In this document: positions 1 to 37,383 of the stretch, piece after piece | Layout: each line of letters opens with the position of its first letter | Position numbering within the stretch: the stretch's first letter is position 1 | Source of the DNA: a virus | Reading direction: 5' to 3' (one strand) | Length of the DNA: 64,000 nt | Virus record (IMG/VR): IMGVR_UViG_3300030104_003613 | The notes under the pieces: generated by a model | Seen by the model: the letters and a program-made list of their open reading frames with translations, nothing else | What the model was told of the DNA's origin: nothing | The model's database searches: none | Program-made: the position numbers and the translations under genes

Positions 1-769
1 TTAAGTTCTCTGTAATAGTTTTGCTTGTCTCTTTTTTCTGTTCCCAGGAGAGATTAAGTTCTTCCATGAATTTCAAGGTCTCTCCATCCTTGATAAAATC
101 ATATGCCCTATGAACTGTAGAGATCAAAGGTGAGATCTTGTCTATGTTTTTGCTGACATCTTTGAGGATTGTTTTTGAGTTTCGCGTGACGCCGGTAAAT
201 ACAAGATGAAGATCATAAGAATCAAATAAATCAACAGGAAGAAACTCATACTTAATAGTGTTAGAGTCCATAAACTCAATCCTTTTGAAACCTCCCACAC
301 CGCACCCATATGGGTCTTGATACCCACAGTAAGGATTGAAAGAAACTTCCAGTTCATATGCTAACCTACAAATGTCATTGTCAGACATCTTCCTATTTAA
401 GAAGATAGAACATGCTTTGATCAAACTAATAATGTAAGAAGATGATGAAGCAAGTCCACTGCCTTGAGAAAACGCATCACTAGCAAGAGTTACCTGTACT
501 GGTGGCATGTCGAAGTATTCTAACACCACACGAACAGGATCATTCTTAATCTGACTGATGTATTCTACCTCTTCTCTCTTGGAATAGTTGATGATGTACT
601 TGTGTTTTACCTTGTTAAAACCAAACTTATCTTGATTGATAGTCACATATGTTTTGAGATTAGATGTAAAACTAATTACAGTTCCATACCCGAATGCACG
701 AACAAAGTTCGGGTTGTCAGTAGACCCCCCGAACAATGATACTCTTAATGGACAACTAGCGATGATCAT
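1..769 (-). CDS. GHMP-family sugar kinase, HddA-like (heptose-7-phosphate kinase-like); 3' end outside window
   Basis: Manual translation from ATG 769: MIIASCPLRVSLFGGSTD...SQGSGLASSSS...GYQDPYGCGVGGF; GHMP motifs. Absent from ORF track because the stop is off-window. Confidence 0.85.
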   Translation of the reverse strand, partial: MIIASCPLRVSLFGGSTDNPNFVRAFGYGTVISFTSNLKTYVTINQDKFGFNKVKHKYIINYSKREEVEYISQIKNDPVRVVLEYFDMPPVQVTLASDAFSQGSGLASSSSYIISLIKACSIFLNRKMSDNDICRLAYELEVSFNPYCGYQDPYGCGVGGFKRIEFMDSNTIKYEFLPVDLFDSYDLHLVFTGVTRNSKTILKDVSKNIDKISPLISTVHRAYDFIKDGETLKFMEELNLSWEQKKETSKTITENL

Positions 770-1440
770 TTGATCTTAAGTGGTAGGAAAAACTGATTCT
801 GTACCATACATTCAACAGTCTGTTGTTCAGATAGAGGACTATAAGTCACTGTCTGATTGCCACCAGAACTTGTCTGGTAGAAGTATGGATCATCAAAAGC
901 ATACACATTGTGCCAGCGTTGAATCTCTGCGAATCCAATGTCAGGATGGTCTTCAATTACATAACCAGCATGAAGACAGACTCTTCTCGCTAAATCAATA
1001 TACCTTTGCCGAAGATACATTATAGCATGTCCACCTAGCATATTGTAAACTTGTAACATACCAGGGTTAACAACGTCCCACTGAACAAAAGGTCCAGAGT
1101 GACCATTCATTCTACCCCAACCAGAGATGCCAAGATAGAAAGCATCAGTGTTCTCTGGTATCTCAATGATAGGATCCCATCTCTTTACCTCAATATCGTC
1201 TTCGATAACCACAAAAGGTGTGCCTAGGGGTGATACGATAGGGTTGATGGCAGTTTCGATTGCTTCCAACATAGAGCGAGCAGTGCCTGCTTGCCCCACA
1301 GAGTGACGGGTGGCATTGATTCTTTTGAAGTTCTTGATCTCAAGATCCTCAAGAATCTTTTTCATCTTTTGATTTCTTTCTGTCGCATCATCTAGGTTGA
1401 TGTAAAAGAAAGGGATCTCCCTAAGATCGTAACGCCGCAT
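766..1440 (-). CDS. Glycosyltransferase, GT25-like
   Basis: FYINLDDATER N-terminus and VIEDDI motif typical of GT25. Confidence 0.7.
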   Translation of the reverse strand: MRRYDLREIPFFYINLDDATERNQKMKKILEDLEIKNFKRINATRHSVGQAGTARSMLEAIETAINPIVSPLGTPFVVIEDDIEVKRWDPIIEIPENTDAFYLGISGWGRMNGHSGPFVQWDVVNPGMLQVYNMLGGHAIMYLRQRYIDLARRVCLHAGYVIEDHPDIGFAEIQRWHNVYAFDDPYFYQTSSGGNQTVTYSPLSEQQTVECMVQNQFFLPLKIK

Positions 1441-2122
1441 GATTCTTCTTCAGAGCAATGATTTTACCAGGTTGAAAGGGATAGTCTGTCCCGATGAACT
1501 CTTCAGCATAACAATATGTGGGGTCCAAATCAAGTGTAGGTGGATTTTGAATCAGATAGCGATTCATATGTGATTCATCATGCCACACTGCGACAATATT
1601 GTTCTTCAGATCTTCGTTCACATTCTCTGCGATAGTCTCCGCCATCTTCATAAAGACTTCAGTCTTACCACCATTGAATCCACCAGCATAGTAGGTGACA
1701 GTCTTCTCGTCTGGTGAGACGAAAGCACGACTAGCAGGATTACGATCAAAGGTCTGTTGAGCAGGAGATGCCATGGATTGATATCCATGTCTAGTAGCAA
1801 CTAGATCACCACAGACTTCTTCTGCTGTCACAACACCATCAATACGCATGTCAGCATCAAAATAGAAGCAGTAATCATGCTCCAAGATGAAGTCTTTCTC
1901 CTTCATGAAATAATTATATCTCTTCAGAGTGGGCATCGGCCATGGTTCATGGTCAATATAATGAACTCTTACGTTATCTCCTGTCTCCTCAATCTCATGA
2001 TCAGTGAACAGAAGACAACTGATTTCAGCACCGGGACAGAACTTCTCCGACAAGTCCTCGTATAGTTTCTCTACGAACTGAAGATATTTGTTCGTAGCAA
2101 TTGTTAAGATACAGATTTTCAT
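1421..2122 (-). CDS. Glycosyltransferase family 6 (ABO/alpha-1,3-Gal(NAc)T-like)
   Basis: IATNKY, WPMPTLKRY, YFDADM (DXD), YYAGGFNGG, AVWHDESHMNRY. Confidence 0.92.
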   Translation of the reverse strand: MKICILTIATNKYLQFVEKLYEDLSEKFCPGAEISCLLFTDHEIEETGDNVRVHYIDHEPWPMPTLKRYNYFMKEKDFILEHDYCFYFDADMRIDGVVTAEEVCGDLVATRHGYQSMASPAQQTFDRNPASRAFVSPDEKTVTYYAGGFNGGKTEVFMKMAETIAENVNEDLKNNIVAVWHDESHMNRYLIQNPPTLDLDPTYCYAEEFIGTDYPFQPGKIIALKKNHAALRS

Positions 2123-3195
2123 GACACCGCCTCTTCAAAAAGTTTTACATATTCATCCATTATAGCATTCATCGAATAAAACTCATCATACCTTTTCTTT
2201 GCTTCTTTAGAGAACTCATCATACTTATCTCTATCTTCCATAAACATTTTCATAATAGCAGCATACTGCTCCACTGTGTCAACACAGGCACCTGCCAATC
2301 CAACCTGCTCTGCCTGTCCCATGCTGGGGGCAGTATGAGTGATTACAGGTAGACTGTGAGACATTGCTTCAATGATAGCACTAGAACATTGTTCTCCATC
2401 AGATCTACCATGAGCATAGACAGTCAGTGTATTCAAGAACTTATGAATGGCATCTACATCTGATGTAGACGGACAGAACAAAGCGTTCTTAATTCCAAGG
2501 TCAAATGCCTGCTTCTCATACTTGACACTACCACCAAGCATTAAGAACATGGTATCATCGTTTTCAATTTTACTATATGCCTCAAGAGGAATAGGTGAGA
2601 AGATGTGATCATTGTCTCTCTGGTGCATACCAAAGATATGTTTCTGATCAAAAGGTAGTTTACCTTCTACTTCTGGCACAACAACAGTAGGTGGAATGAC
2701 CATAGATCTATCCGCTGGTCCACCAGCAGCGATCCATTTATCTCTCTGATCCTGACACATCAATACAGTCTTGTAAGTATTAGGTTTGTCTTCTGCCATT
2801 CCAGATAGGTGAATAGTATCGATGATAGGAGTCTTGCGAATCATATGGAATGGATACTCTGGATGCCCAGACCTACCACTCACAACCAGATCATAGTTTT
2901 TCTCATCAAAGAGATCCCAGAAGTCTGTGCCAACCCAGTCGTGGGTGCCAACTGTGACGTTCTTGAATAGGACTTTGACTGGAATACAATTTACACCATG
3001 ACTTTCACAAAACTCAACCCTACTGGGATCAGTATCTTTATGCTGATGACTTGATCCAATATAGGGTGCTCCAGGTGTGTAAAAATAATCAACTTGAAAC
3101 TTTGTCTTGTCGAGATAAGAGGCAATAGTTTGGAGGAACTTCTCTGTTCCTCCGTTTGCCATTCCACCAAACTTAACGAATGCTACCTTAATCAT
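2119..3195 (-). CDS. Glycosyltransferase, GT4/GT-B fold
   Basis: GGTEK N-terminal motif and EQCSSAIIEAM (EX7E); start at ATG 3195 overlapping the upstream stop. Confidence 0.8.
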   Translation of the reverse strand: MIKVAFVKFGGMANGGTEKFLQTIASYLDKTKFQVDYFYTPGAPYIGSSHQHKDTDPSRVEFCESHGVNCIPVKVLFKNVTVGTHDWVGTDFWDLFDEKNYDLVVSGRSGHPEYPFHMIRKTPIIDTIHLSGMAEDKPNTYKTVLMCQDQRDKWIAAGGPADRSMVIPPTVVVPEVEGKLPFDQKHIFGMHQRDNDHIFSPIPLEAYSKIENDDTMFLMLGGSVKYEKQAFDLGIKNALFCPSTSDVDAIHKFLNTLTVYAHGRSDGEQCSSAIIEAMSHSLPVITHTAPSMGQAEQVGLAGACVDTVEQYAAIMKMFMEDRDKYDEFSKEAKKRYDEFYSMNAIMDEYVKLFEEAVS

Positions 3196-3944
3196 ACCGC
3201 TTTCAAACAAATCATGTTTCTGGGGAACCACCATGGAATCCACACGTTAAACCACTTTTGTCTAACAAGTTTATCAGTGCTAGCGTTCATTGCGTCATCA
3301 TGAGTCAACCAGTTTGTAGACTTTGGTTTATGAACACCATCATTGAATCCAGTTCCATCACCCCTCACAGTATATCTCAAGAACTCGGGGTCTGCTTTCT
3401 CTGTTTCTCTTGCTTCTTTACACCATTGAACGATCTTTTCTTCCAACTCGGGATAAACTTCATATCCTTTAGTAAGGAGTTTATCGTACCAGTAGGACTT
3501 TGGTTGAAGATTGAAATGTCCTGTGCCACCTTGCCCCGGAGGTGCTGCTGTCATGATGATATACTTTGCCCCATGTCGAGTAAGAGCATCAACATAATTG
3601 TCAGCATACTCTGGTTCGATATGTTCCGCAACCTCAATGCTGTAAACCATATCTACATCTTGGTTGACCTCATAGGGATTTCTCAAATCATGGATAGTCA
3701 CCTTTTCGGGGTCAATCATCATGTGAGGAATGGCATTAGTTGTTCCCTCTAGTCCAGAAATTTGAACACCGAGATTCTCATAACAAGACAACCAATGTCC
3801 TGTGGCACATCCTACATCAAAAACTGATTCGATATTTAAAAACTCTTTGATCTTGGGGGCAAGATACTTTGCCATTGGAAGAGAGTCAGCGATGTTATCT
3901 CTGAAGAACCAGTCTTCATAGATTTCGTTTAGTACATTAGTCAT
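3192..3944 (-). CDS. Class I SAM-dependent methyltransferase
   Basis: VFDVGCATG motif I; SIEVAEHI; PGQGGTGH. Confidence 0.8.
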   Translation of the reverse strand: MTNVLNEIYEDWFFRDNIADSLPMAKYLAPKIKEFLNIESVFDVGCATGHWLSCYENLGVQISGLEGTTNAIPHMMIDPEKVTIHDLRNPYEVNQDVDMVYSIEVAEHIEPEYADNYVDALTRHGAKYIIMTAAPPGQGGTGHFNLQPKSYWYDKLLTKGYEVYPELEEKIVQWCKEARETEKADPEFLRYTVRGDGTGFNDGVHKPKSTNWLTHDDAMNASTDKLVRQKWFNVWIPWWFPRNMICLKAV

Positions 3945-3948
3945 TTTA

Positions 3949-4881
3949 TTAATCGTTGAATTGTGTATTGGGTTGGCGTCCAGTGCGTTTTACAAACTCC
4001 TCACGCAGTTGTGGAATGTGCCAGATGCGAAGACCTTCAAAGTATTCTACACCCTGATTGTCAAAATGCTCTAGAATCTTGGGCATTAGATCACAACGCA
4101 GGAAAGTCTTCTCATCCCATTTAGGATCGAAGTTAGGGACATTAGGAGTAGGAATGCCTTCCAACCATGCGGGAGGAATCTTCTTCAGTCCAACGCCTTG
4201 ATCTTGAAAACAAATACTATACTTACCAAGGATTGTACCCAGAGCACCAGGACCGTGCTGAACCAGTTCACCAACCTGCTTCCATGCCTGTTTCAGGTGG
4301 AAGTTATTGAAGTATGCGAACTGATAGTGGAGGACACATCCCATGCTAGGATCAAGTCTCATCCACTTGTCCTCTGTGTTTGGTCCAATAGTTCTACCAT
4401 CTGCCATAAAAGTGTAGTGATAATCCAATTCAGGACTATCAGTTACAACAAAATCCTTGTAGAGATTACTCCACACGGTCTGGTCATTGCGATAGAAATT
4501 GTTGCTCTTCCACAGTGCCAACCACTGCATCGCCAGTTTCCTACCAGGTGGAATCTGTGAGATTACCTCTCTGGCAATAGGAACAAAGTTAGTGGTGAAT
4601 GCTTCATCAGCATCCAAGCAAAGGAAGTGAGTTCCTTTACGCTCGCGAGCATAGTTAAACAGGAACTGGCGTACACGTCCGGGGTTCCAACCACCACGAA
4701 CGTCTGTGGTCTCCTCATATCCCTTGACGATGACGCCTGCTTCCTCCATCATCTCTCTGGAATTATCAGTAGAGTCATTATCAATAGCAATGATCTCATC
4801 ACAAATGGGGAGAACATTCTTCAAGTAAAGAGGAATAAACTGTTCCTCATTCTTGAAGGGTAAGAGTCCAATAATTTTCAT
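3949..4881 (-). CDS. Glycosyltransferase family 2-like
   Basis: PFKNEE, IDNDSTDNS, LDADE. Confidence 0.8.
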   Translation of the reverse strand: MKIIGLLPFKNEEQFIPLYLKNVLPICDEIIAIDNDSTDNSREMMEEAGVIVKGYEETTDVRGGWNPGRVRQFLFNYARERKGTHFLCLDADEAFTTNFVPIAREVISQIPPGRKLAMQWLALWKSNNFYRNDQTVWSNLYKDFVVTDSPELDYHYTFMADGRTIGPNTEDKWMRLDPSMGCVLHYQFAYFNNFHLKQAWKQVGELVQHGPGALGTILGKYSICFQDQGVGLKKIPPAWLEGIPTPNVPNFDPKWDEKTFLRCDLMPKILEHFDNQGVEYFEGLRIWHIPQLREEFVKRTGRQPNTQFND

Positions 4882-5510
4882 TTCAGGTAAATTCCAAATC
4901 CAGTAGGGTTGTGCGCGTCCTTTGTTACATCAAACTTTGTCCCAGTCCACTCTTCGTGAAACTTCCACTTTGATCTTTCATCAGATGTGGTGCCTTGATC
5001 TTGAATATCATCCACCACGATGATGGCATCATCCGTCAAATACTTGTTCCATACCTCATACTCTGCTTTGATCTGCTCGTATGTATGAATCGTATCACAG
5101 AAGAGCATACTTACACTCTTTTCTTCAAAGAGTTCTGCGATCTTATCAGAGTCAATAGCATCAAAGTTATTATCAATCGTGACCCTAGGATCTCGTCTTA
5201 CCTCTCCTGGAACATAACGACAGTCATTCGTGATATCAAATGAGTAAAACTTTTGATCCTCTTTGAGAGCATCATAAATCGCAAGGGTGCTACACCCTCT
5301 ACGATTACCCAGTTCTACGACAGTTCCATCAACGTGTTCTGTCAGTTTGTGGAGATACCAGAAGTATCCATGGTTACTATCAGCATTAGTGATGTACTGA
5401 TAATGCTCCGTTGTGGGAGAGATCAGTCTAATAAGGTTAGAATCATTCCATTCAACAACTTTGTTCTTGTTCTTAATGATTCTATTGATAAAAGTCTTAT
5501 GATTACTCAT
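4878..5510 (-). CDS. Class I SAM-dependent methyltransferase (Methyltransf_24-like)
   Basis: VVELGNRRGCST, FCDTIHTYE, IVVDD. Confidence 0.75.
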   Translation of the reverse strand: MSNHKTFINRIIKNKNKVVEWNDSNLIRLISPTTEHYQYITNADSNHGYFWYLHKLTEHVDGTVVELGNRRGCSTLAIYDALKEDQKFYSFDITNDCRYVPGEVRRDPRVTIDNNFDAIDSDKIAELFEEKSVSMLFCDTIHTYEQIKAEYEVWNKYLTDDAIIVVDDIQDQGTTSDERSKWKFHEEWTGTKFDVTKDAHNPTGFGIYLK

Positions 5511-6285
5511 TAAAATCTGATGCCTCAATCACTCTATCATTAAACGTGATCTTATTTATTTCATATCCTGAACTTGCTTGGGGAACCAGTCTGGGATCAA
5601 TAACATCTATACCATATCTCATTTCAATCACAGTTCTTTCAAGAGACTGCTTACTGTTGGGACTGGTGCTCTGTCCTAATCCTTCATCAAGATAGTAACC
5701 AAGGATGTCATTGATATGAAGACCTTTGCCACAACGTGCCATTCGCATCGCAAGATCATAGTCGGCACCAGAAACAAGTTTCTCATCAAACCAACCAGTC
5801 TTATCTAACAAATTTCTACGAACCATGAAGAAAGGTCCAAGGATCATACCACTCTTCAACTCATCTTCTCTACCAGATTCATCTACCAGTTCACCATCTG
5901 TTCCTCTAAACTCTGGAACTTTGATGTAGTTGCCATATACAAAGTCAACATCAGGATTCTCATCCAGTGCCTTTGCCATCACCTCAATGGATTCCGGTGT
6001 ACGCAGGTCATCAATGTTCCAGATACACAAATAATCACCATCAGCATATTCAATACACCGATTCATTGATACGCCAATAGGATCAACACCCTCTACAACA
6101 ATGTGAGTGATGTTGTCCTGTGTTTCATTATACTTTTCAACCTTGGCAACCTCTTCCTTGGTGGGATCATTATGGTCAAGAACAACTTCAAGATCGGTAT
6201 GAGTCTGTTCTGCCACACTCTCCAAGAATCCGTCCAGATACTTTGAAGTATTATAGGATGCGCTAATACAACTAACTCTTGTCAT
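5503..6285 (-). CDS. Glycosyltransferase family 2
   Basis: VSCISASYN, GDYLCIWNIDD, GWFDE, ADYDLAMR. Confidence 0.85.
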   Translation of the reverse strand: MTRVSCISASYNTSKYLDGFLESVAEQTHTDLEVVLDHNDPTKEEVAKVEKYNETQDNITHIVVEGVDPIGVSMNRCIEYADGDYLCIWNIDDLRTPESIEVMAKALDENPDVDFVYGNYIKVPEFRGTDGELVDESGREDELKSGMILGPFFMVRRNLLDKTGWFDEKLVSGADYDLAMRMARCGKGLHINDILGYYLDEGLGQSTSPNSKQSLERTVIEMRYGIDVIDPRLVPQASSGYEINKITFNDRVIEASDFNE

Positions 6286-7135
6286 TGAGATACTCCTTCT
6301 TCATTTCATTATACACCTTTCTGACGCCTACATCAATAGTAGTTTTAGGAATCCACCAATCTAGAATGAAGGTGTCTGCTTCGTTTCTCTTATCCATCTG
6401 AACACTGTCCTTTGCCAGACCGGGTTTGATATCAACATCATACATTTCGTCCATATAAAAACATCCCTTGATCATAGCGGCAACCTCTTTGATTGTCTCT
6501 GATCTGAATGAAGTGATGTGAAGTGGATCCTCTGGTTTGAAGTCAGTATAGTTCTCCATGATTGTCTCTAGTGCCTCACAGCAGTCTTCAGCATAGAGGA
6601 ACTGACGCTCTTCGGTGCCATCAGTCATCATTTCAAATTGACGCTCTTCAAACCCCTTACGGATGAAGTCAGTGATAACATGTGCCTTCTCCATATCTTT
6701 CTCAATACCATAGACATTCCAGAACTTAACAGTAAGTCCATTTAGTGCTGTGGTATGAAGTTCGCCAACACGCTTCATCACACCATAAGGTGAGTATGAC
6801 ATGTTGCTCATCTGGGATGAGGCAAAGATAAATCTCTTATTGAACCTCTTCAATAGTTTGAAGGTGTTCGCCATCATACGAGTGTTGTTGTTTACAAAGT
6901 CAAACGTATGCTGATACTTCTTTAGATAGCGTGACCCACCTACATCAAAAGCAAGGAAGAATACAAAGTCAGCATTCTCAATTGACTTCTCTATGACAGT
7001 GCTAGGTGTCACCCTCAAATCATATTGAACACCATTCACGACATCAATATCAGTGACCTCATGTCCTTTTTCTTTGAGGTAATCAGATAGGTATGCGCCA
7101 ATCTGGCCAGCAGATCCTAGGATTGTAACTTTCAT
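6272..7135 (-). CDS. NAD-dependent nucleotide-sugar epimerase/reductase (extended SDR)
   Basis: GSAGQIG Rossmann motif, YGVMK (YxxxK), DGTEERQF. Confidence 0.85.
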   Translation of the reverse strand: MKVTILGSAGQIGAYLSDYLKEKGHEVTDIDVVNGVQYDLRVTPSTVIEKSIENADFVFFLAFDVGGSRYLKKYQHTFDFVNNNTRMMANTFKLLKRFNKRFIFASSQMSNMSYSPYGVMKRVGELHTTALNGLTVKFWNVYGIEKDMEKAHVITDFIRKGFEERQFEMMTDGTEERQFLYAEDCCEALETIMENYTDFKPEDPLHITSFRSETIKEVAAMIKGCFYMDEMYDVDIKPGLAKDSVQMDKRNEADTFILDWWIPKTTIDVGVRKVYNEMKKEYLNDKS

Positions 7136-7989
7136 ACAATGATCTCCATAAATTTATTCAAAGATGCTTTCAATGATAATTCCCTCTTCACGAACATTTG
7201 AGGGTTGTAGTTCTTACCTATAAATTTAGAGAAGGTATCTCCAAGTTCGGAATATTTATAAAAGAACTCACCACATTCTTCTGACCAATAGGGGATAGAA
7301 GTTGCGGGAGTTGCCCACTCTTCACCCATGTCATTCCATTCTTTCACATCCCATACAAGACAGGGTGTATCTGATGCCATAATCTCTTGAACAGCAATGC
7401 CTTGACTCTCTGTTCCATTTAACAGAAACGCGAATCTAACTTTACTAAGGGTGTTGATAAAATCATTCTGTGAATAATTACCATAACCAAAGACAATGTA
7501 AGTCATTCCTTTTTCATCCAGGAACTTCTTGACAAGATTTAACTCTTTGTCACTTCTCCTTTTAAAGTAAATGAGGAAATCGTATTCAATTTCTCTGGTT
7601 ACGTTTGTGATGTCAATACCAACTGGCCATGATACAACCTTGTTTGAAGGCACATTGAACTGAGTAATTAATTGATTGGATACCCATTCAGAGGGTGTGA
7701 TGAGTTTATTATAATAATCGGGATTGTCAAATAAGAATTTACCATAGGCATCCCAACCCCAAAACTGTGGTCCAATATAACACGATTCATGTTCTAGACA
7801 CTCATGCTTTCTGTGACCATCAGCATTATACTGCATCAGGAAATTAGTATCATATCTTTCTTGATTGATACTATACGGAATGCCTTCCAGGTCTAATGAT
7901 TTAATAAAGTTTTTGACAACCTTCTCTGGACCACTAACAATGCCCTGCCTGTGTGCCCAATAAGAATCCTCATACCATAGATTTATCAT
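7132..7989 (-). CDS. Glycosyltransferase, GT-B (GT4-like)
   Basis: SGPEKV, ITPSEWV, WPVGID, ESQGIAVQE (EX7E). Confidence 0.65.
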   Translation of the reverse strand: MINLWYEDSYWAHRQGIVSGPEKVVKNFIKSLDLEGIPYSINQERYDTNFLMQYNADGHRKHECLEHESCYIGPQFWGWDAYGKFLFDNPDYYNKLITPSEWVSNQLITQFNVPSNKVVSWPVGIDITNVTREIEYDFLIYFKRRSDKELNLVKKFLDEKGMTYIVFGYGNYSQNDFINTLSKVRFAFLLNGTESQGIAVQEIMASDTPCLVWDVKEWNDMGEEWATPATSIPYWSEECGEFFYKYSELGDTFSKFIGKNYNPQMFVKRELSLKASLNKFMEIIV

Positions 7990-8849
7990 ATATCCTCCCA
8001 ACCATTTACAATGATGTCCTTATAATCCACAGTATTTTTAGGACCAGCCCATTTGTTTACGTCTGGACAGACAACCTTTCTTGTTCTGCTCTGCAACCAA
8101 GCACCCCACCAACTGTAACTACTATTAGAAATGATAGCACCATCACACAAAGTCATCAAGCATAAATCAAACTCTGGTGATAGTGCTCCTTCCTTATATC
8201 CCTGACTTGATATGAAAGAACTCATTGGCATTCTATCTTCAGTTTCAGAGAAATGAAATCTATCTGATTGAAAGAGTTGTTGATCTTTACACCACTCAAT
8301 ATCATCAGAGAAAACCAGCACAGGTTCATCACTGAAAAGTGACAATGCTTTTTCAAAATAAGTTATGTCCAGATTGAAATGATACTCTGGTCTCTTTACA
8401 TAATCTCCTCTTCTAACATGGAGGAAAATGGGTGTAACATCAAAACTTGATATCATCTCTTGACATGGTTCAAGAATATAGTCTTTGAAGTTAAAGTCTT
8501 TTCTGATACTACCCTCAATGTTCTTGAACCATTTTTCAGACTGGTAAAACCCGCTGATGTTCACATTGTCGGGACACTCATCATAGAATTCCTGATTGAA
8601 ATGAAACGTGGTTGAGTGACACACATCGTCAGATGTCCTGTGTTTATAAAGACCTCCCATGTATCCATTGTATTTGACACTGCTCAACTCAAAGACATCA
8701 TGAAGAAGGTAATTACAGGTCCTTGATTGATCGTTTGGGGGGATTACAAAGTCATATCCCCTATGTGCTGCTATACCACGAAGGGCAGCATACTGAAACA
8801 TAGTGTTTCCAATCCACCCCTTGTTACCTAGTTCATCAAAACCAATCAT
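7986..8849 (-). CDS. Alpha-1,2-fucosyltransferase, GT11
   Basis: GNTMFQYA, GFYQSEKWF, HVRRGDY, FSDDIEWC, SNSSYSWWGAWL. Confidence 0.92.
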   Translation of the reverse strand: MIGFDELGNKGWIGNTMFQYAALRGIAAHRGYDFVIPPNDQSRTCNYLLHDVFELSSVKYNGYMGGLYKHRTSDDVCHSTTFHFNQEFYDECPDNVNISGFYQSEKWFKNIEGSIRKDFNFKDYILEPCQEMISSFDVTPIFLHVRRGDYVKRPEYHFNLDITYFEKALSLFSDEPVLVFSDDIEWCKDQQLFQSDRFHFSETEDRMPMSSFISSQGYKEGALSPEFDLCLMTLCDGAIISNSSYSWWGAWLQSRTRKVVCPDVNKWAGPKNTVDYKDIIVNGWEDI

Positions 8850-9814
8850 GACAGACGATCCACCCAGGTCTTGATCATCTCATCCATCATAGTCTCAAAG
8901 TTATACGTCGGTTTCCATCCAAGTTTATCACGAATCTCCTGACCATCACCTTTAAGGTACTTCAACTCCTCGGGTCTCATATACTTCTGATTCTGTACAA
9001 CATAATCTTTGTAGTTTAAACCTAGTTGAGTGAATACATGATCGCAAAGGTCACGAACCGTTCTTGTCTCTCCGGTCGAAACAATCCAATCCCTTGGTTC
9101 TTCATGTTGTAGGAGAAGATACATTGCGCGAACATAGTCATAGGAGTGACCCCAGTCACGACTGGAATCCATGTTACCCAATTCAAGTTTGTCACGAAGA
9201 CCATTCTTGATTTCTACTGCTGCTTTGACAACCTTGTGTGTCACGAAGTTAGTTCCTCTACGAGGTGACTCATGATTAAAGAGAATACCGTTACAAGCAT
9301 GAAGTTTATAGGCATTCCGATAGTGACGGACCAGATTGTATCCCATCACCTTGGAACAACCATAGGGACTGACAGGACTCATAATTGTAGTGAGTCTTTG
9401 ACATCCATCTGGGTCAACAGAATTACCAAACATCTCAGAAGAACTTGCCTGATAGAACTTGGATTGAGGAACAACCTCTTTGTATGCTTCTAGAATATTC
9501 AGAACACCAAGAGAGTTTGTCTTAATAGTAAAAGAAGGGACATCAAAACTAACCCTGACATGACTCATAGCAGCAAGATTATAAATCTCATCAGGTTCAA
9601 CCTCTCTCATAACACGGTACAGAGAGTGTTCATCAGTCAAATCACCATAATGATTGTTGACTTGATCATTAATATTCATGATACGAGAACTCTGGTTCTC
9701 GGCAACTGACTGTCGTCGAACAATACCATGAACTTCATAACCAAGTTCCACAAGATACTCGGCAAGATAAGATCCATCTTGTCCAGTGATACCAGTAATG
9801 AGTGCTTTCTTCAT
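8846..9814 (-). CDS. gmd: GDP-mannose 4,6-dehydratase
   Basis: GITGQDGSYLAE, SHVRVSF, YQASSSE, NGILFNHESPRRG, RDWGH. Confidence 0.97.
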   Translation of the reverse strand: MKKALITGITGQDGSYLAEYLVELGYEVHGIVRRQSVAENQSSRIMNINDQVNNHYGDLTDEHSLYRVMREVEPDEIYNLAAMSHVRVSFDVPSFTIKTNSLGVLNILEAYKEVVPQSKFYQASSSEMFGNSVDPDGCQRLTTIMSPVSPYGCSKVMGYNLVRHYRNAYKLHACNGILFNHESPRRGTNFVTHKVVKAAVEIKNGLRDKLELGNMDSSRDWGHSYDYVRAMYLLLQHEEPRDWIVSTGETRTVRDLCDHVFTQLGLNYKDYVVQNQKYMRPEELKYLKGDGQEIRDKLGWKPTYNFETMMDEMIKTWVDRLS

Positions 9815-10401
9815 TTGAATACTTTCATGTTTCTAAGGTCAGGCCAATCAGTCCATTCCCATTGGCGGGGAGTTCTTTCAATAGCGTCTGGCAACTTGTC
9901 CAATCCCAGTTGTGCTGTCTCTGGTGTCATATAGTAATGATATCCTACCATGTCAATATCTTGGTCTCTCCATGGAGTACCAGGAGTTCTCCCATCATAG
10001 GACATTTGTTTGATGGTGTCAAAAGATGTTTTATTATCCAACAATATCATACCACCTCTACCCAAACTCAAATGTTTCTGGAATTGAAAACTCAAACACA
10101 TGTATGTGCCGGGAATGTATGAGTTTTTCTTCCACAATACAGCAGCATCAATAATATTTGTATCACCAAGAGCGTAATAATCTTTCCATTCCTCCTCTGA
10201 CCATTCCATATCAAGACATAGTTTTTTAGATAAGAAAGGAATAGAGATATAAGTTCTGGTTGGAACTGTAATCTTGGGGTAACCCTCATATCTAAGACAA
10301 AGTTCAATACCATGAGTACAGGAGTCTACCGCAATTGCGTATGGACTTCCAAAGAACTTTGCTATCTCTGTTTCAAATTTAGATACTGATTCAAAACTCA
10401 T
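9811..10401 (-). CDS. DegT/DnrJ-family PLP sugar aminotransferase, unusually short
   Basis: AVDSCTHGIEL, IIDAA, SFQFQKHL (Schiff-base Lys), GRGGMI, GYHYYM. Confidence 0.85.
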   Translation of the reverse strand: MSFESVSKFETEIAKFFGSPYAIAVDSCTHGIELCLRYEGYPKITVPTRTYISIPFLSKKLCLDMEWSEEEWKDYYALGDTNIIDAAVLWKKNSYIPGTYMCLSFQFQKHLSLGRGGMILLDNKTSFDTIKQMSYDGRTPGTPWRDQDIDMVGYHYYMTPETAQLGLDKLPDAIERTPRQWEWTDWPDLRNMKVFK

Positions 10402-10915
10402 AACCTAACTCCTTCGCATACTCATACATTTTTGTCTTACGTCTTTTCTTAATAGGTTTTGCTGGACTACCACCATAGATTGTCCATGGTTCGGTAGATG
10501 TTTTTAGGAAAGAGTTTGCTCCTAACACAGAACCCTCTGCCATGGTGACACCTGACATCACAACAGAGTTGGCACATACACCAGAAAACCTTTTGAGATT
10601 AATTGGTTCTAGTATTTGTGTGTCCTTGTATTCATCTGGGATCATAGGTCCAATAAGTCCATCACCCATAAAAAGATCTGATCCACAGATCATTCTCGCA
10701 CCTGTCGAAATGAAAGTAAAGTCTTCCATATTTAGAGATGTCTTTTCTCCACCAATCACCGAAACATGTGGAGAGATATGAATATAATCACCCAGATTTA
10801 AACCAGTGGTACAGTAAAATCCAAAGTCAATAGCAACATGATTACCAACTTTTGCTAAATGAGGTCTAGTTATACAGGTATGACCATGTATAAAGAAATC
10901 ATTTCCTGTGATCAT
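10391..10915 (-). CDS. Hexapeptide-repeat (LbH) acyltransferase
   Basis: LGDYIHISPHV, GVTMAEGSVLGANS, IYGGSPAKPIK; likely start MITGN at 10915. Confidence 0.85.
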   Translation of the reverse strand: MITGNDFFIHGHTCITRPHLAKVGNHVAIDFGFYCTTGLNLGDYIHISPHVSVIGGEKTSLNMEDFTFISTGARMICGSDLFMGDGLIGPMIPDEYKDTQILEPINLKRFSGVCANSVVMSGVTMAEGSVLGANSFLKTSTEPWTIYGGSPAKPIKKRRKTKMYEYAKELGYEF

Positions 10916-11324
10916 TGATGAACACCTTATCATTTTCAATTCCCGTATAGGGTCCAGTCTTGTATTCATAAACAACGGTGTCATCATCAAGGATGGTATA
11001 TGTGTGACCACCCTCAAAGGTCATCGAGCAGTCACCTTGATTAATAATCTCATCACCAATATGAGTTTCATCAATGTCATACATGTGAATCTTTACAGAT
11101 CCTTGAATGACCACCCAAGATTCTTGAGCGATTACTTGCTCTCTTGAAGATGGTTTCCAAATATGTTTGTGAGGTTTAAATGTTTTACCCGAATCCATCC
11201 TCAAGGTTGCTAACTGAATAAATTGATCTTCGGGTGCGACATCAGTTCTTGCGGTGATCTCATCTAATCTATTAATGATATGAATGAGTCTAGAGGGATC
11301 AACTTTAGAGTATATGTGTTTCAT
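10899..11324 (-). CDS. Cupin-fold protein (WbuC/sugar-isomerase-like)
   Basis: PHKH...QESWVVIQG...GGHTY...EYKTGPY. Confidence 0.75.
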   Translation of the reverse strand: MKHIYSKVDPSRLIHIINRLDEITARTDVAPEDQFIQLATLRMDSGKTFKPHKHIWKPSSREQVIAQESWVVIQGSVKIHMYDIDETHIGDEIINQGDCSMTFEGGHTYTILDDDTVVYEYKTGPYTGIENDKVFINDHRK

Positions 11325-11326
11325 AA

Positions 11327-11470
11327 CTAGTCTGTTTTAGTTTGATTGTAAAACCAATTGTGTGTAAGTTGATACCACATCACAGCATTTACACTTGTGA
11401 TCGAAAGTATCAAGAGTAAGATCACAACCATTGTGATCCCCTTTATGGATTTATCAGTCTTCTTTAGCAT
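11327..11470 (-). CDS. Small membrane protein
   Basis: 47 aa with one hydrophobic helix; fills the gap between flanking genes. Confidence 0.5.
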   Translation of the reverse strand: MLKKTDKSIKGITMVVILLLILSITSVNAVMWYQLTHNWFYNQTKTD

Positions 11471-12509
11471 CGATTTGAGCATTGATCCAATGATAGGTAT
11501 AACGAATACCCTCTTCAAGAGTCATCTCATAATCCCAACCAACTTTCTCACGAACAAGATCATTGTTAGAGTTACGTCCACGAACACCCAGAGGAGCATC
11601 CAGTTTATGCATCCTGCGAACTACTTTACCAGCAACTTTGCCAGCGATATCAACCAGTTCGTTGATCTTAACCATCTCTTCAGAACCAATATTCATTGGT
11701 CCCATGAAATCAGAGTCCATCATACGACGGGTTGCTTCGATACACTCATCAATATAAAGGAATGAACGAGTCTGTTCACCATCTCCCCATACTTCAATCG
11801 CACCACCTACATCAGGAAGGTATGCTACTTTACGACAAATTGCTGCGGGGGCCTTCTCTCTTCCACCCTCCCAGGTCCCCTCCGGGCCAAAAATGTTGTG
11901 ATATCTAGCAACCCTAACAGGAATGCCATGATTACGATTATACGCAAAGTACAGTCGCTCAGAGAAAAGTTTCTCCCATCCGTACTCGGAGTCTGGGTCT
12001 GCGGGGTATGCTGATTCTTCACGGCAGTCGGGATTATCAGGGTCCAATTGGTTATGCTCTGGATACATACATGCTGATCCAGAATAGAAGATCTTGGTAT
12101 TATTTCCTACAGTCTCATTAAATTTACGCTGCTCTTCAAGCACATTCAAGTTGATGGTAACAGAGTTGTGCATGATTTCAGCATCATTTTCACCAGTGAA
12201 AACGAATCCAGCACCACCCATGTCAGCAGCAAACTGATAGATCTCATCAAAAGGAGCATGATATCTTTCAGGAACAGAGTAATAGAAGTTACCACGTTCT
12301 CCTTTGAAACGGAGAACACGACGGACAAATTCTACATCACAAAGATCGCCCTGTACAAATTCGTTCGCCTCGGTAGGGGAGAACTCTGGATATTTAAGGT
12401 CTACACCACGCACCCAGTAACCTTCTGAACGCAGACGCTTCACCATATGACTTCCGATGAATCCACCTGCGCCCAAAACGAGTGCTGTTTTCTTGTATTC
12501 CATGGTCAT
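11454..12509 (-). CDS. NAD-dependent epimerase, GDP-mannose 3,5-epimerase-like
   Basis: GAGGFIGSH, AADMGGAGF, SACMYPE, YGWEK, GGREKAPAAICRK, GVRGRNSNN. Confidence 0.9.
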   Translation of the reverse strand: MTMEYKKTALVLGAGGFIGSHMVKRLRSEGYWVRGVDLKYPEFSPTEANEFVQGDLCDVEFVRRVLRFKGERGNFYYSVPERYHAPFDEIYQFAADMGGAGFVFTGENDAEIMHNSVTINLNVLEEQRKFNETVGNNTKIFYSGSACMYPEHNQLDPDNPDCREESAYPADPDSEYGWEKLFSERLYFAYNRNHGIPVRVARYHNIFGPEGTWEGGREKAPAAICRKVAYLPDVGGAIEVWGDGEQTRSFLYIDECIEATRRMMDSDFMGPMNIGSEEMVKINELVDIAGKVAGKVVRRMHKLDAPLGVRGRNSNNDLVREKVGWDYEMTLEEGIRYTYHWINAQIDAKED

Positions 12510-14186: not shown

Positions 14187-14258
14187 TGCTTGAAGAGGGG
14201 ATCGAACCCCCGACAACCTCGGTGTAAACGAGACGCTCTACCTCTGAGCTATTCAAGC
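14187..14258 (-). tRNA. tRNA-Val(UAC)
   Basis: GCTTGAA/TTCAAGC acceptor, TT-TAC-AC loop, GGTTCGATCC. Confidence 0.95.
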
Positions 14259-14387: not shown

Positions 14388-14459
14388 CAGGTCCACTAGG
14401 AATCGAACCTAGAATAACTGCTTAGAAGGCAGTAGTTATATCCGTTTAACTATGGACCC
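14388..14459 (-). tRNA. tRNA-Arg(UCU)
   Basis: GGGTCCA/TGGACCT acceptor, ACTGC-CTTCTAA-GCAGT, GGTTCGATTCC. Confidence 0.95.
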
Positions 14460-31877: not shown

Positions 31878-32878
31878 GAACCGTAGGAAAACTCCTCCTT
31901 CGCAATGACATCTAGTTTCTCCATAACTTCTGGAGTAAAATATGCTTCAGGATCTTTCAGAATCGCTTTGGCATATACTTTCTTGCCATCTATTTCATAG
32001 CGTCCTGCTACATTCTTCCATAGGCCACCAAGTTCGCCAAGCTCCAAGAGGCCATAATACCGATCAAGACCCCGCTCATCATAATACAAACGTATTGTAA
32101 CATCTTTATTCTCCTTGCTTAAACGCGACTTGTGCGTCTTAGCCTTGATAAGATTTCCGACAATTTCCGTTCCATCCTTTTCTTTTTTCTTTGAGAGATA
32201 AATGATCGTAGACGCGGCATACTTGAGGCCGCTGCCGCCTCCCATTTCCTTAGTAGGGACATAAGATCCAATGACATCGTAGGTATGATTCGTAACAATC
32301 ATGGGAATGTTTGCTTGACCAAGTTTCAGGGTGAGCATCCTGAAAGCGCCCTTGACAAGTTGCGATTTGGTCATGTCGCGAACTTGTTTGTCGTCAAGGG
32401 CATCACGAATTTCTTTCTCTGTGGAAAGCATTCCCAGAGAGTCTAGCACAAACATACAGGGTTTGCGATCCTCTGTGGGGGTCTTTAAATATATATCCAC
32501 CGCTTTCAGTGCTTTGGTTCTGAACTCTTCGATGGTAACGACATTAACAACGACGACGCGAGTAAGGTCAAGACCACGGCTCGCGAGTAGGGATTTATTA
32601 ACTGCGGCTTCAGTGTCAAAATAGAGACAGTAACCGTCAGGGTTAGAATCGAGGAAATTCTTAACAACCGCAAGTGAGAAGAAAGTTTTTCCAGTGCTAG
32701 ACTCGCCAGCAATGGCAGTAATCTTATTCCCAGATACGCCACCAAATATGCTACCTGAAACAACTCCATTAAGAATGTATGAACCCGTATCCACAAAGGT
32801 CTCTGTGTCGTCGATGTCTGCTGCGAGTTTTGTGTACTCATCTCCAATCTCTTTTACGATGTCTTTAAGGAAATCCAT
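31874..32878 (-). CDS. uvsX: RecA-like recombinase
   Basis: GESSTGKT, DSLGML, DMTKSQ, MGGGSG. Confidence 0.96.
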   Translation of the reverse strand: MDFLKDIVKEIGDEYTKLAADIDDTETFVDTGSYILNGVVSGSIFGGVSGNKITAIAGESSTGKTFFSLAVVKNFLDSNPDGYCLYFDTEAAVNKSLLASRGLDLTRVVVVNVVTIEEFRTKALKAVDIYLKTPTEDRKPCMFVLDSLGMLSTEKEIRDALDDKQVRDMTKSQLVKGAFRMLTLKLGQANIPMIVTNHTYDVIGSYVPTKEMGGGSGLKYAASTIIYLSKKKEKDGTEIVGNLIKAKTHKSRLSKENKDVTIRLYYDERGLDRYYGLLELGELGGLWKNVAGRYEIDGKKVYAKAILKDPEAYFTPEVMEKLDVIAKEEFSYGS

Positions 32879-35373
32879 TATCCAAAAAATAGTTCTAGGT
32901 TTACAACTTTCTCGACGTTCCATCCAATAGCGTCAAGTATGACCTTTACAGGTTCTAGGAATGCCTTGTCAAATTGTAAATCGTAATCGATATACTTGTC
33001 AAGTCCTAGTTCGTGTGGGAAATCCGAGATGAAAGAAATCACATTCTCTCTAATCGGATTCGCTTTCTTCAACATGACAAACTTAATCTTCTCACCATTA
33101 TTGATGAGAGAATATTTGTTTGACAATCCCTTTTCTTTTATATAGTGATTATAGAGCAAAGAACCACGAACATGCATAGGGCATCCCTTACCGTAAACAG
33201 TTACGGAATTCTTATGCTTATTAACATCACTCACAGTTCTAGGGAAGGCAATCTCCTCTGGAGACAGTTTCTTGAACTTTGCTCTGGCATCTTCAATGAA
33301 GTCAATGACCTCATCTTCTGTACCACTCATCATCAGGTGTAGGGCATCCTTAATCATTTTCCTACAAGGAGCAGGAGTAGACGACTTAACCGCCTCAATA
33401 CCCATCATTTTCAGTTTAGGTTCTTCGTACCGCACACCCTCACTATCCCACACGTTGAGGATGTATCTCTTCTTTGCAGTCCAGATGCCACGTTCAGCGA
33501 TATTCTCCCGCTTCATCTGCATCTTCTGCTCGTAGGCATTTACATACGTCGCAAGATCCTGATAACAGGATTCGATGAACGGTTCCAACTTGTCTTCACA
33601 GATCGTGTTAAGGATTTCCACAAGTTTAGTCGTTTCGCTAATACGACTACTATAAAATTTATCAACAAGAGGTCCGAAATTAATATAGATTGAGTCAGTA
33701 TCGGATGCGATAACATAATCGATACTATTTGTTTTGAGCAAGTTATTTATATACTCATTCACACGGTTCTCAATCCAACGGATAGAAGTTTGCCCAGAAA
33801 GGGTGATTGCTTCAGCGTTTGCTAATTTATAATAGCGGAAGTATTGATTACCAATCGCACCATAGGCAGAGTTGAGAGCAATCTTTTTAGCCATCTGAAT
33901 GTTGTTACATCTGGCAATTTCTTTCTCAAGTACCGCAGTGGGCGTCTTCTCATACTGCTGCTTGGCAGCGAGCATTCGTTTCTTGAAGATAACTCGTTCC
34001 GCATACATTTTCTCCATCAATTCAGGCAAGAATCCTTTGATATCCTTACGGAACATCGCACCGTTCGCGCAAACAGCATAGTCTTTATACATCTCAAAGG
34101 TAAGATCTTTATTCAAAATCTTATCGACAGTGACTGACGGATGTTTCTCATCGACCAGTGTTTCTGGTGAAATGTTATACTGCATCATCAAGTGAGGATA
34201 CAGAGAGTTAAGGTCAAAAGATACCACCCAGTCATACTTACCAGGTTTGGGTTCTTTCACATACGCACCAGCAAACTTATCACTCTTCTCCGACCTGTCG
34301 CGAGGAGGAATGACAATGTTTCTGTTCTTCAAATAGTTGTAGATGATACTGTCCCACATGCGAACTTGAAACATCACATCATTGTAGTTTACTTTGGCAG
34401 TGTATGCCATCGTTAATGCCAACTCAATTAGTTTCATCTTGTCTTCCATCCGGTCAACAAGTTCCACGTCAACAATGTTGTAGTCTACAAACTTCTTCCA
34501 GTTACCACGATAGAAATCTCGGAATGTATCAAACTCACTGTGGTCTAACTTCTTTTGACCGAGTTCAACTTCAGCAATATAGTCCAAGCGATAGGACTCT
34601 TGTGCCTTGTAAGTAAACTTCTTATACAGTTCCAGATAGTCAAGTGTAGCAACACCTTCCAAGTCAAAGATGTTAAACATGCGACCAGTGATCTGAATCT
34701 CCTCATGACGAACCAAACCCCATGGTGAGAGTTGCTTCATCTTCTTCTCACCCATGACACGGGTGATACGACCACACAGGTAAGGGATGTCATATAGGCG
34801 ACAGTTCCAACCAGTCACCACATCAGGTGTGTTTTGCTGCCACCAATACAAGAATGCCTCAAGCATCTCCACCTCTTCGGAGAAGTGATGATAGGTCACA
34901 TTTGCTTGTGTAGGAGCATAGGGGTGACGACCCCAGGTTATGATCTTCTTGGTGTTGTAATCCTGAAGTGAGATGGTCAACATCTCTTCAGAGCAGGACT
35001 CTGGATCTGGAAATCCATGCTCTGCCTGAACCTCAATATCAATCGTTACAAGATTGATTTTTGCGATGTCAAACTTAATTTCCTCTTCAGGATATTTCTC
35101 AGAGATATATTGACAGACATATCTGTCCTGCCCGTAAATCTTGAACCCATCAATATCATCATATTTACGATAGAAATCACGACAATCACGAACTGATCCT
35201 GGTTGAATCGGTTCTACATTATCACCTTCAAGTGTCTTCCACTTGCTTTCTCTTTTTGACTTTACATAAAGTGTAGGTTGATATTCTTCTCTGTATGATA
35301 CCTTTTTTCCATCCTCATATCCACGAAACAGAAAATTGTTACCAATCATCTGAACGTTGGTGTAAAACCTCAC
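32878..35373 (-). CDS. gp43: Family B DNA polymerase
   Basis: DIEV exonuclease motif, DLNSLYP, KIALNSAYG, DTDS. Confidence 0.98.
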   Translation of the reverse strand: MRFYTNVQMIGNNFLFRGYEDGKKVSYREEYQPTLYVKSKRESKWKTLEGDNVEPIQPGSVRDCRDFYRKYDDIDGFKIYGQDRYVCQYISEKYPEEEIKFDIAKINLVTIDIEVQAEHGFPDPESCSEEMLTISLQDYNTKKIITWGRHPYAPTQANVTYHHFSEEVEMLEAFLYWWQQNTPDVVTGWNCRLYDIPYLCGRITRVMGEKKMKQLSPWGLVRHEEIQITGRMFNIFDLEGVATLDYLELYKKFTYKAQESYRLDYIAEVELGQKKLDHSEFDTFRDFYRGNWKKFVDYNIVDVELVDRMEDKMKLIELALTMAYTAKVNYNDVMFQVRMWDSIIYNYLKNRNIVIPPRDRSEKSDKFAGAYVKEPKPGKYDWVVSFDLNSLYPHLMMQYNISPETLVDEKHPSVTVDKILNKDLTFEMYKDYAVCANGAMFRKDIKGFLPELMEKMYAERVIFKKRMLAAKQQYEKTPTAVLEKEIARCNNIQMAKKIALNSAYGAIGNQYFRYYKLANAEAITLSGQTSIRWIENRVNEYINNLLKTNSIDYVIASDTDSIYINFGPLVDKFYSSRISETTKLVEILNTICEDKLEPFIESCYQDLATYVNAYEQKMQMKRENIAERGIWTAKKRYILNVWDSEGVRYEEPKLKMMGIEAVKSSTPAPCRKMIKDALHLMMSGTEDEVIDFIEDARAKFKKLSPEEIAFPRTVSDVNKHKNSVTVYGKGCPMHVRGSLLYNHYIKEKGLSNKYSLINNGEKIKFVMLKKANPIRENVISFISDFPHELGLDKYIDYDLQFDKAFLEPVKVILDAIGWNVEKVVNLELFFG

Positions 35374-36089: not shown

Positions 36090-36245
36090 TCAGAAGGATT
36101 TGGTGTGAATGTCAAGTTCCCCATCATCAATGTGGGCGTGATCAATATGTTCAATGTGACCATGCACCATATTTATTGTGATGGTCCCACTCTCTAACAC
36201 TGTTGCTATCCTCTCAAGGGCATCAGCGATTCTGTCCTGGTCCAT
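36090..36245 (-). CDS. Small His-rich protein
   Basis: Manual: MDQDRIADALERIATVLESGTITINMVHGHIEHIDHAHIDDGELDIHTKSF. Confidence 0.7.
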   Translation of the reverse strand: MDQDRIADALERIATVLESGTITINMVHGHIEHIDHAHIDDGELDIHTKSF

Positions 36246-36266
36246 AATCATAGATCTTCTCTACAT

Positions 36267-36322
36267 ATCATAAAGCATAAAAAAGGGGGTGTCAACTGGA
36301 TTGTGCCAGTTCCCCCTCTGCC
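36267..36322 (-). promoter_or_regulatory. Sigma70-type promoter with CAG-N8-CTG element, embedded in a terminator
   Basis: GGCAG-N8-CTGGC, then TTGACA-N17-TATGAT. Confidence 0.8.
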
Positions 36323-36341
36323 CATAGGGCGGCGACGATAT
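36279..36341 (-). ncRNA. Candidate late small RNA / hsp20 terminator
   Basis: CTAAATA late-type box (36346-36352) overlapping the hsp20 stop; terminator AGGGGG-AACTGG/CCAGTT-GACA-CCCCCT-TTTTT. Confidence 0.5.
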
Positions 36342-36348
36342 GAATTAT

Positions 36349-36786
36349 TTAGTCTGACCCAAACCAGAGTTTCTTCTGGTGCTTCTCTGGGACAATGCGG
36401 TTTAACACCACAGACAGGATACCATCAACGAACTCCACATTGCTCACCTCAACGTCTTCAGAGAGCGTCCAGGCGCGTTTAAACGAGCGTAGGGCAAGAC
36501 CACGATGGACATACTCTCGTTCCGCCGTGTCCTCCTTGGATGCCTCTACAAACAGTTGTCCCGATTCAGTATATGCTTTAACTTCTTTGCTACTGAATCC
36601 AGCGAGTGCTAGTTCAAGAGTGTAGGTATTCTCGTCCACTTTCACCAAGTTATACGGCGGGTAGTTTACATCCTCCGCACTAGAAAGTTGTTTGTTAAAC
36701 CACTCATTCACTCCAATCGAATGCTTATCGATGTCACGGACAAAGCGATCTAGATCCGCAGCACCGTAGTGTGCTAGTGTTCTCAT
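36349..36786 (-). CDS. hsp20: Small heat-shock protein
   Basis: NYPPYN, ELALAGF, HRGLALRSFKRAW, DGIL. Confidence 0.95.
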   Translation of the reverse strand: MRTLAHYGAADLDRFVRDIDKHSIGVNEWFNKQLSSAEDVNYPPYNLVKVDENTYTLELALAGFSSKEVKAYTESGQLFVEASKEDTAEREYVHRGLALRSFKRAWTLSEDVEVSNVEFVDGILSVVLNRIVPEKHQKKLWFGSD

Positions 36787-36945: not shown

Positions 36946-37383
36946 TTATTCTTTCTCTTCGCTTTTACTTTTCTTGCCTATATTATATTTTTGCTCCAGC
37001 ACCCAATTGTGTTTCTCTTTATAGGGAAGAACTTTGATTTGATTTAGCGGAGCAATATCTAGAATAGTATCTTCATTCACAACACTAATGAGGCCCCAGT
37101 CAGCAAGAAGGCGAGTAATACGATTCCTACGCTGAACGTCGTTAACAGTAAGGTTAGCGTACTTGCCGTCAAGAGCAAACAACTCCTTAAAATGCACTAT
37201 GTAATATTTACCTTGTTTATGCAAAATATGGCAGGATTGATAAAGTTTCTTCTCTTTTCGTGAAGCTACACCAATTCTTGTTAATGTTTCCCTCACTTTA
37301 AGAAAGTCATCAGGGGCGTTCAATCTGACCTCAATCATTTGATCTTGAGACCAATTTACCTGCGGTTCAGTAGTTTGTGTCAT
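36946..37383 (-). CDS. regA: Translational repressor RegA
   Basis: DDFLKVRETLTRIG, LYQSCHILHKQGKYYIVHFKE. Confidence 0.97.
   Translation of the reverse strand: MTQTTEPQVNWSQDQMIEVRLNAPDDFLKVRETLTRIGVASRKEKKLYQSCHILHKQGKYYIVHFKELFALDGKYANLTVNDVQRRNRITRLLADWGLISVVNEDTILDIAPLNQIKVLPYKEKHNWVLEQKYNIGKKSKSEEKE

Follow-up and report, generated by a model that had tools for sequence, protein, structure and literature searches.

A short non-coding element of T4-like cyanomyoviruses carries, behind a candidate late promoter, an unpaired 5′ segment that is the Watson-Crick complement of a segment of picocyanobacterial 5S rRNA. The element is very probably real, conserved and previously undescribed. It was studied in a 64,000 nt stretch of viral DNA (IMG/VR record IMGVR_UViG_3300030104_003613; hereafter the window), which comes from a T4-like cyanomyovirus. 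The element is best explained as a phage RNA of late infection that would pair in antisense with host 5S rRNA, and this reading is held with slightly more belief than doubt. It draws on the anatomy of the element, its conservation as a single-copy feature, its complementarity to real 5S sequences and the co-variation of its 5′ segment with natural 5S variants.

Genomic setting and anatomy of the element

The gene order on the minus strand of the window is gp44, gp62, regA (36946-37383), hsp20, small ORFs and gp43 (32878-35373). The element follows hsp20, a small heat-shock protein gene that has TATAAATA upstream, at about 36848-36841. On its other side lies a 53-amino-acid ORF, the first gene after a predicted early promoter. 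This ORF is not kept among the carriers of the element. Elsewhere on the minus strand, the window encodes two tRNA genes (14187-14258 and 14388-14459; Rfam, 66 and 64 bits). Positions 1-12500 of the same strand hold a series of sugar-modifying genes, apparently an auxiliary cluster of the polysaccharide type. It includes a group 1 glycosyltransferase (2119-3243) and an NAD-dependent epimerase/GDP-mannose dehydratase-like gene (11454-12509).

Table 1. Features of the element and its neighbours; positions refer to the window unless a phage genome is named.
Feature	Position	Strand	Basis
hsp20 (small heat-shock protein), gene 5′ of the element	36349-36786	-	ORF list; Pfam HSP20, E = 1.2e-12
hsp20 stop codon TAA, inside the late-type box	36351-36349	-	
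Late-promoter-like box CTAAATA, candidate late promoter	36346-36352	-	Sequence
Unpaired 5′ seed AUAUCGUCGCCGC	36329-36341	-	Watson-Crick complement of 5S rRNA GCGGCGACGAUAU
Mini-hairpin GCCC-UAU-GGGC, sharing the last two seed bases	36320-36330	-	Fold
Intrinsic terminator, bipartite GC hairpin and U6 tail	36279-36316	-	Fold
Predicted sigma-70-type early promoter	36267-36295	-	11/12 consensus match
53-aa ORF without known family, downstream of the element	36090-36251	-	ORF list, Pfam
Element in Syn9	164115-164185		CM R1
Element in S-PM2	124951-125027		CM R1

The unit spans 36352-36279 on the minus strand and has four parts: a late-type box CTAAATA, the unpaired seed, an optional mini-hairpin and a U-tailed terminator (Table 1). 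The overlap of the box with the hsp20 stop codon and the location of the seed agree with an earlier note on this DNA. The cyanomyovirus late promoter consensus is NATAAATA (PMC2984593). The box of the element, CTAAATA or ATAAATA, resembles this consensus, is conserved at a fixed spacing and is a candidate late promoter. ATTC lies between box and seed. Read from the box alone, transcription is predicted to start near 36341-36339. With such a start, 5-7 nt past the box, the RNA of the window copy would be about 63 nt long. The fold and the ORF list bear out the description in the earlier note of a unit of this length that is free of ORFs, has an open 5′ end and ends in a U-tailed terminator. The window unit has a minimum free energy of -25 kcal/mol (z = -2.3) and leaves its first 15 nt open, and no ORF of at least 30 amino acids was found in the unit on this strand.

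The mini-hairpin that the earlier note had described is present in the window but is no general feature of the family. It is confined to the window and a few relatives, and most relatives have other short inserts at this place or none. The mini-hairpin is therefore an optional insert and was rejected as a defining feature.

The terminator hairpin consists, in order, of GGGGG, A, the inner hairpin ACUGG-CACAAU-CCAGU (36310-36295), UGACA and CCCCC, followed by the tail UUUUUU (36284-36279). With a GC stem-loop, a U6 tail and an outer helix that covaries in 147 sequences, it has the make-up of a Rho-independent terminator. A simple terminator scanner missed the site because its loop limit is 3-8 nt and the hairpin is bipartite.

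The predicted early promoter is interlaced with this hairpin. Its -35 element TTGACA (36295-36290) is located in the 3′ side of the hairpin, its -10 element is TATGAT (36272-36267), and the 17 nt spacer includes the U-tail of the terminator. TTGAC(A/G), the T-tract and TATAAT or TATGAT are kept across relatives. As judged from its sequence, a stretch of about 30 nt doubles as an RNA terminator and as a DNA early promoter for the next genes. This overlap accounts for part of the conservation of the 3′ half. It leaves the conservation of the seed unexplained; the seed precedes the early start by about 65-80 nt.

Distribution and conservation

A BLAST search with one element against 50,697 phage records matched 293 records at 293 places, one copy each. 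Nearly all are Synechococcus myoviruses, Syn9 and S-PM2 included, and the element is unannotated in them. A pattern scan found it in at least 120 IMG/VR contigs. A covariance model (CM R1) gave one strong match (57-95 bits) per complete genome in seven phages (S-RIM8, P-SSM7, S-SM2, Syn19, S-CAM1, Syn9 and S-PM2) and a single match of 65 bits in the window. The Prochlorococcus phages P-SSM2, P-SSM4 and P-HM2 showed neither a CM match nor the box-plus-seed pattern.

Relatives reached through their Hsp20 proteins (63-92% identity) keep the box, UAUCGUCG[C/G]CGC and the inner hairpin ACUGGCA[A/C]AAUCCAGU. The fetched loci were searched for psbA, and none was found. The genes upstream of the element vary among carriers (hsp20, a Gly-rich ORF, T4-GC 162 and others), and so do the genes downstream. 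Of the 148 unique elements, 136 have TAAATA, with C (73) or A (57) in front of it. TAAATA stands 8 nt before UAUC in 102 of the 148, regardless of the upstream gene. In 86 of 148 folds the 5′ 15 nt have no pairs at all, and pairing of the first 6 nt is seen in three at most.

The seed is the most conserved part of the element, and the outer terminator stem is less conserved. This is the opposite of what the earlier note had named as evidence against its proposal. The outer terminator helix is maintained by compensation: compensatory changes occur at six of its seven pairs among the 147 sequences, with 151 double-changed cells compared to 44.6 in shuffles, a value reached in none of 500 shuffles. 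The invariance of the inner hairpin is partly built in, as the searches were anchored on it; copies found with the CM in S-PM2 and in contigs L368 and L469 have compensated changes at its outer pair.

Two carriers deviate in the 5′ part. In S-SKS1 (L494) and L357, an extra leader GGGTAAAC.CCAA is inserted between box and seed. Their seed is shortened to UAUCGUCGC, directly followed by AGACGG, and about 12 nt of 5S complementarity are left.

Outside the cyanophage family, the 16-mer ACTGGCAAAATCCAGT was also observed in unrelated prophage-like IMG/VR contigs from isolate genomes (L322, L324, L330, L331, L332, L337-L339, L342, L347, L354 and L364). There it is preceded by TACCTTT.CGGTAAATTTACA and GGC and followed by GCCGGGATTGG..CCCCGG, a conserved context that resembles some other structured RNA or a tRNA-like element.

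Complementarity to host 5S rRNA

The 5S string given in the earlier note is real. Picocyanobacterial 5S rRNAs contain GCGGCGACGAUAUU; Prochlorococcus AG-363-B11 and many other Cyanobiaceae have it as ...CAGCGGCGACGAUAUUUGGGG..., the commonest 5S form with 39 species. The 5S genes were first reached by a 5S-anchored pattern scan of species genomes that included Prochlorococcus and Synechococcus. An Rfam 5S search then found 5S in 115 of 151 genomes of the host family, and 90 were read (Table 2). GCGGCGACGAUAUUUG occurs in 39 and GCGCCGACGAUAUUUG in 11 of these 90 Cyanobiaceae species.

Table 2. Forms of the target segment among the 5S rRNAs.
5S form	Occurrence
GCGGCGACGAUAUU	41 species (39, and 2 with a 16-mer ending in UUUU)
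GCGCCGACGAUAUU	11 species
GCGGCGACGAUAGU	10 species
GCGGCGAAGAUAUU	8 species; 5 were read from genomes as small as those of Prochlorococcus
GCGGCGAAAAUAUU	7 species
GCGGCAACGAUAUU	4 species
GCGCCGACGAUAGU	2 species
GCGGCAACGAUAGU	2 species
GCGGCGAUGAUAGU	1 species
GCGGUGACGAUAUU	2 genomes of the WH7803 genus

In the Rfam alignment, the target segment, GCG[G/C]CGACGAUAUU, takes in the final two bases of helix II together with the entire 5′ strand of helix V/loop E. Its fourth base, the G/C site in GCG[G/C]CGAC, is a compensated pair flip in helix V with AUAG[C/G]UC (L280-L311, L372-L448). The GCGCC form was read in 13 of 90 species, mostly of one genus, whose complete genomes have three 5S copies. 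The genomes with GCGGCGAAAAUAUU include those that we take to be MIT9312 and MIT9301. In one picocyanobacterium with the GCGCC form, a separate observation was made: about 19 head-to-tail repeat copies with a period of 603 bp, containing TCGCCGACGAAATT, fill G013:C1:556432-567275 and probably belong to a giant repetitive protein gene.

The window seed is complementary to real 5S sequences over 13 nt, within the 12-13 nt proposed by the earlier note. The family consensus UGAAUAUCGUCGCCGC extends this to 14 Watson-Crick pairs and two G-U pairs. The calculated seed-5S duplexes have energies of -24.8 to -28 kcal/mol, compared to medians of -14 to -16 for shuffled seeds. Across a complete rRNA operon, the best duplex of the 5′ part is the 5S site (-26.4 kcal/mol). 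Each host genome has one to six occurrences of the 10-mer core, the 5S copies invariably included. A 14-mer match to 5S rRNA has an expectation of about 2e-5. When two mismatches were allowed, four host genomes held nothing better than or equal to 5S, and other near-matches appeared only at two mismatches. Alternative seed targets within the window were not found beyond chance at up to two mismatches. At up to two mismatches, T4 was found to contain no 14-mer that is antisense to the homologous segment of E. coli 5S. One property of the target counts against pairing: in mature ribosomes the segment is helical and protein-bound.

Co-variation of the seed with natural 5S variants

Nearly every seed variant found is the Watson-Crick complement of a natural 5S variant, and such matches number at least seven. 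The 5S-matched seed changes are G/C, C>A, CG>AA, C>U, G>A, U>G and a double change. The two main forms, CGCCGC (58 unique) and CGGCGC (57 unique), each have a complementary 5S variant. The seed UAUCUUCG/UAUCUUCGCCGC was found in nine contigs of at least two backgrounds, and its complementary 5S was found as well. Complementary 5S variants also exist for UAUUUUCG/UAUUUUCGCCGC (contig L469), for UAUCGUUG/UAUCGUUGCCGC (L344) and for seeds beginning with CUAUCG (ACUAUCG, in the C or G form; L125 and L121). One 258-kb phage has a double change, CUAUCAUCG/AACUAUCAUCGCCGC, and both changes are mirrored by the rare 5S form GCGGCGAUGAUAGU. The seed CUAUCGUUGCUGC (L367) pairs with one G-U.

A prediction was made in advance from the 5S form GCGGUGACGAUAUU/GCGGUGAC: only A should replace G at seed position 8. 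A scan of this position found two contigs with different backgrounds, and both have A. A scan of the control position U6 found a single contig, with an unmatched U>C; the variant scans were targeted at chosen seed changes.

The direction of the changes is also informative. Single substitutions include C>U at all five C positions of the seed, by which G-U pairing is kept; U>C and G>A without compensation hardly occur. Two transversions were seen in the 12 nt core, C9>G and G5>U; of the 24 possible, no others match a 5S variant. By chance, 12% of single substitutions would be compatible if only Watson-Crick pairs count, and 31% if G-U pairs are allowed.

The covariation with host 5S that the earlier note had proposed as a test holds for the rare variants, which track natural 5S sequences, and does not fit S-PM2 and S-RIM8, which mismatch the probable WH7803 5S. 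The latter is read from genome G156 (2,366,980 bp), which we take to be WH7803 from its chromosome length. Its 5S has GCGG, and its genus has two 5S copies. Among the phages isolated on WH7803, S-CAM1 and S-SCSM2R have the C form of the seed, S-IOM18 and S-M1 the U form, S-SKS1 the shortened seed, and S-RIM8 and S-PM2 the G form. Against the probable WH7803 5S, the G form of the last two has a central G-G mismatch that leaves 10 + 3 pairs. S-H35, isolated on WH8102, also has the G form. The G form is about as common among phage contigs as the C form (57 and 58 unique), whereas just 13 of the 90 species have the host GCGCC form. For the U form (13 unique), none of the 5S sequences sampled offers a Watson-Crick partner. 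Possible causes of the G-form misfit are broad host ranges, a laboratory host that differs from the natural host, and a weaker constraint at position 9.

Alternative explanations

The same pairing with 5S could be made by an RNA that is the 3′ UTR of the upstream mRNA, or a fragment processed from it, instead of an independent late transcript. TAAATA would then be kept for other reasons, for example as stop-codon context. The upstream stop codon is nearly always located in or beside the box, and hsp20 has its own upstream TATAAATA, as such an origin would suggest. The box and its 8 nt spacing nevertheless persist behind unrelated genes, and even where an insert separates stop codon and seed. 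A 3′-UTR origin of this kind is considered unlikely.

A regulatory cassette of terminator and sigma-70 early promoter could also be all there is, with a coincidental 5S match or a seed that is a DNA site for a protein. In favour are the 11/12 match of the predicted promoter, its -35 element inside the hairpin and the conservation of TTGAC, T-tract and TATAAT, and the inner palindrome with its A-rich loop, at about -52 to -37, is in a possible place for an UP element or operator. These features leave out the seed, which is the most conserved part in spite of its distance of 65-80 nt from the early start. The element is single-copy, with no repeats within genomes. A 14-mer match to 5S has the low expectation given above, and the seed variants complement natural 5S variants, including the double change and the prediction made in advance. 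The excess of C>U over the reverse change suits RNA pairing and not a DNA site. A cassette without a function of the seed in pairing is quite improbable. For the partner of the seed, the co-variation tracks the 5S sequence and not the molecule that carries it. The partner could be the 5S rDNA in an R-loop at the rRNA operon, a partially complementary host mRNA, or 5S fragments of a host defence for which the phage RNA acts as a sponge, in place of mature or precursor 5S rRNA. No better or equal site was found in the four host genomes or in the window, and the tolerance of G-U pairs favours an RNA-RNA duplex over an RNA-DNA duplex. A partner of this kind is very improbable.

Proposed function and significance

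The reading preferred here, late antisense pairing with 5S rRNA, can be extended to a mechanism. From a gp55-type late box, TAAATA, a transcript of about 55-65 nt would arise, in which the first 13-16 nt, (G)AAUAUCGUCG[C/G/U]CGC, would remain unpaired and serve as the antisense seed for host 5S. The transcript would end at the intrinsic terminator, the descending arm and U-tract of which would act in the DNA as -35 element and spacer of the early promoter. Late in infection, the RNA may bind nascent or free 5S rRNA, with the seed pairing to the target segment in helix II and helix V/loop E. The bound RNA would compete with the formation of helix V/loop E, and hence with the binding of 5S-specific ribosomal proteins. 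New 50S assembly might be blocked, 5S might be exposed to host RNases, or both. Host ribosome production would stop and nucleotides would be freed. For this complete picture, that is, a dedicated late sRNA whose 5′ end pairs and co-evolves with host 5S, that shuts down ribosome assembly or triggers 5S decay and whose seed records the host lineage, we see the chances as even.

Cyanomyoviruses are among the most abundant viruses of the ocean. Most sampled cyanomyoviruses that infect Synechococcus carry the element, which is unannotated and not in Rfam. If the pairing with 5S is true, the element would be the first phage sRNA known to target ribosomal RNA. It would represent a new route of host take-over, by which ribosome biogenesis is stopped or rRNA nucleotides are mobilised in nutrient-poor water. 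For uncultured phage contigs, the seed may in addition indicate the lineage of the host, as the 5S variants that it mirrors are not the same in the clades of Prochlorococcus and Synechococcus.

Comparison with known systems

Rfam 15 at the gathering threshold found only the two tRNAs in the window and no match at the element, and a local E-value search of the window with Rfam gave nothing above 16 bits. A search of the literature for an anti-5S RNA of cyanophages found none. Non-coding RNAs on record for T4-like cyanophages are glnA, manA, PhotoRC-II, wcaG, abiF and CfrI (PMC2984593 and PMC12197685, among other sources). A review of phage sRNAs from 2025 never mentions rRNA (PMC12197685).

CfrI of S-PM2 is the only experimentally confirmed antisense RNA of a cyanomyovirus (PMC2984593). 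Both CfrI and the element are non-coding and come from T4-like cyanophages. CfrI has about 225 nt and is encoded in cis, and its antisense partners are phage psbA and a homing endonuclease gene. The element, in contrast, has about 60 nt, lies at another locus of S-PM2 (Table 1) and is complementary to a host RNA in trans.

The architecture of the element is that of trans-acting sRNAs with a 5′ seed, such as RybB and OmrA/B or the phage and prophage sRNAs DicF, IpeX and 24B_1 (the last three from PMC12197685). They share shortness, the absence of an ORF and a GC hairpin with a U-tail. The element also has an unpaired 5′ seed of 12-16 nt that is more conserved than the remainder, and this seed co-varies with its predicted target, the exception being the G form in phages isolated on WH7803. 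Unlike these sRNAs, the element has rRNA and not mRNA as its predicted target, and it is encoded by lytic T4-like phages behind a candidate late promoter.

C/D-box guide RNAs of archaea and eukaryotes are similar in principle only, as short RNAs with 10-20 nt antisense to rRNA. The element has no C/D boxes and no known partner protein, is borne by phages of bacteria and would presumably be inhibitory and not guide modification.

Promoter-early stem-loop (PeSL) cassettes have reportedly been described in T4-type phages by Arbiol and co-workers in 2010. As in PeSL, the stem-loop of the element is placed directly upstream of a predicted sigma-70 early promoter and overlaps it at a module boundary, with varied neighbour genes. 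The element differs by its 5S-complementary segment and its late-type box, and it is single-copy instead of a dispersed repeat. A multi-copy cassette of the PeSL kind was rejected: the 293 places are distributed over 293 records, and strong CM matches number one per genome and one in the window.
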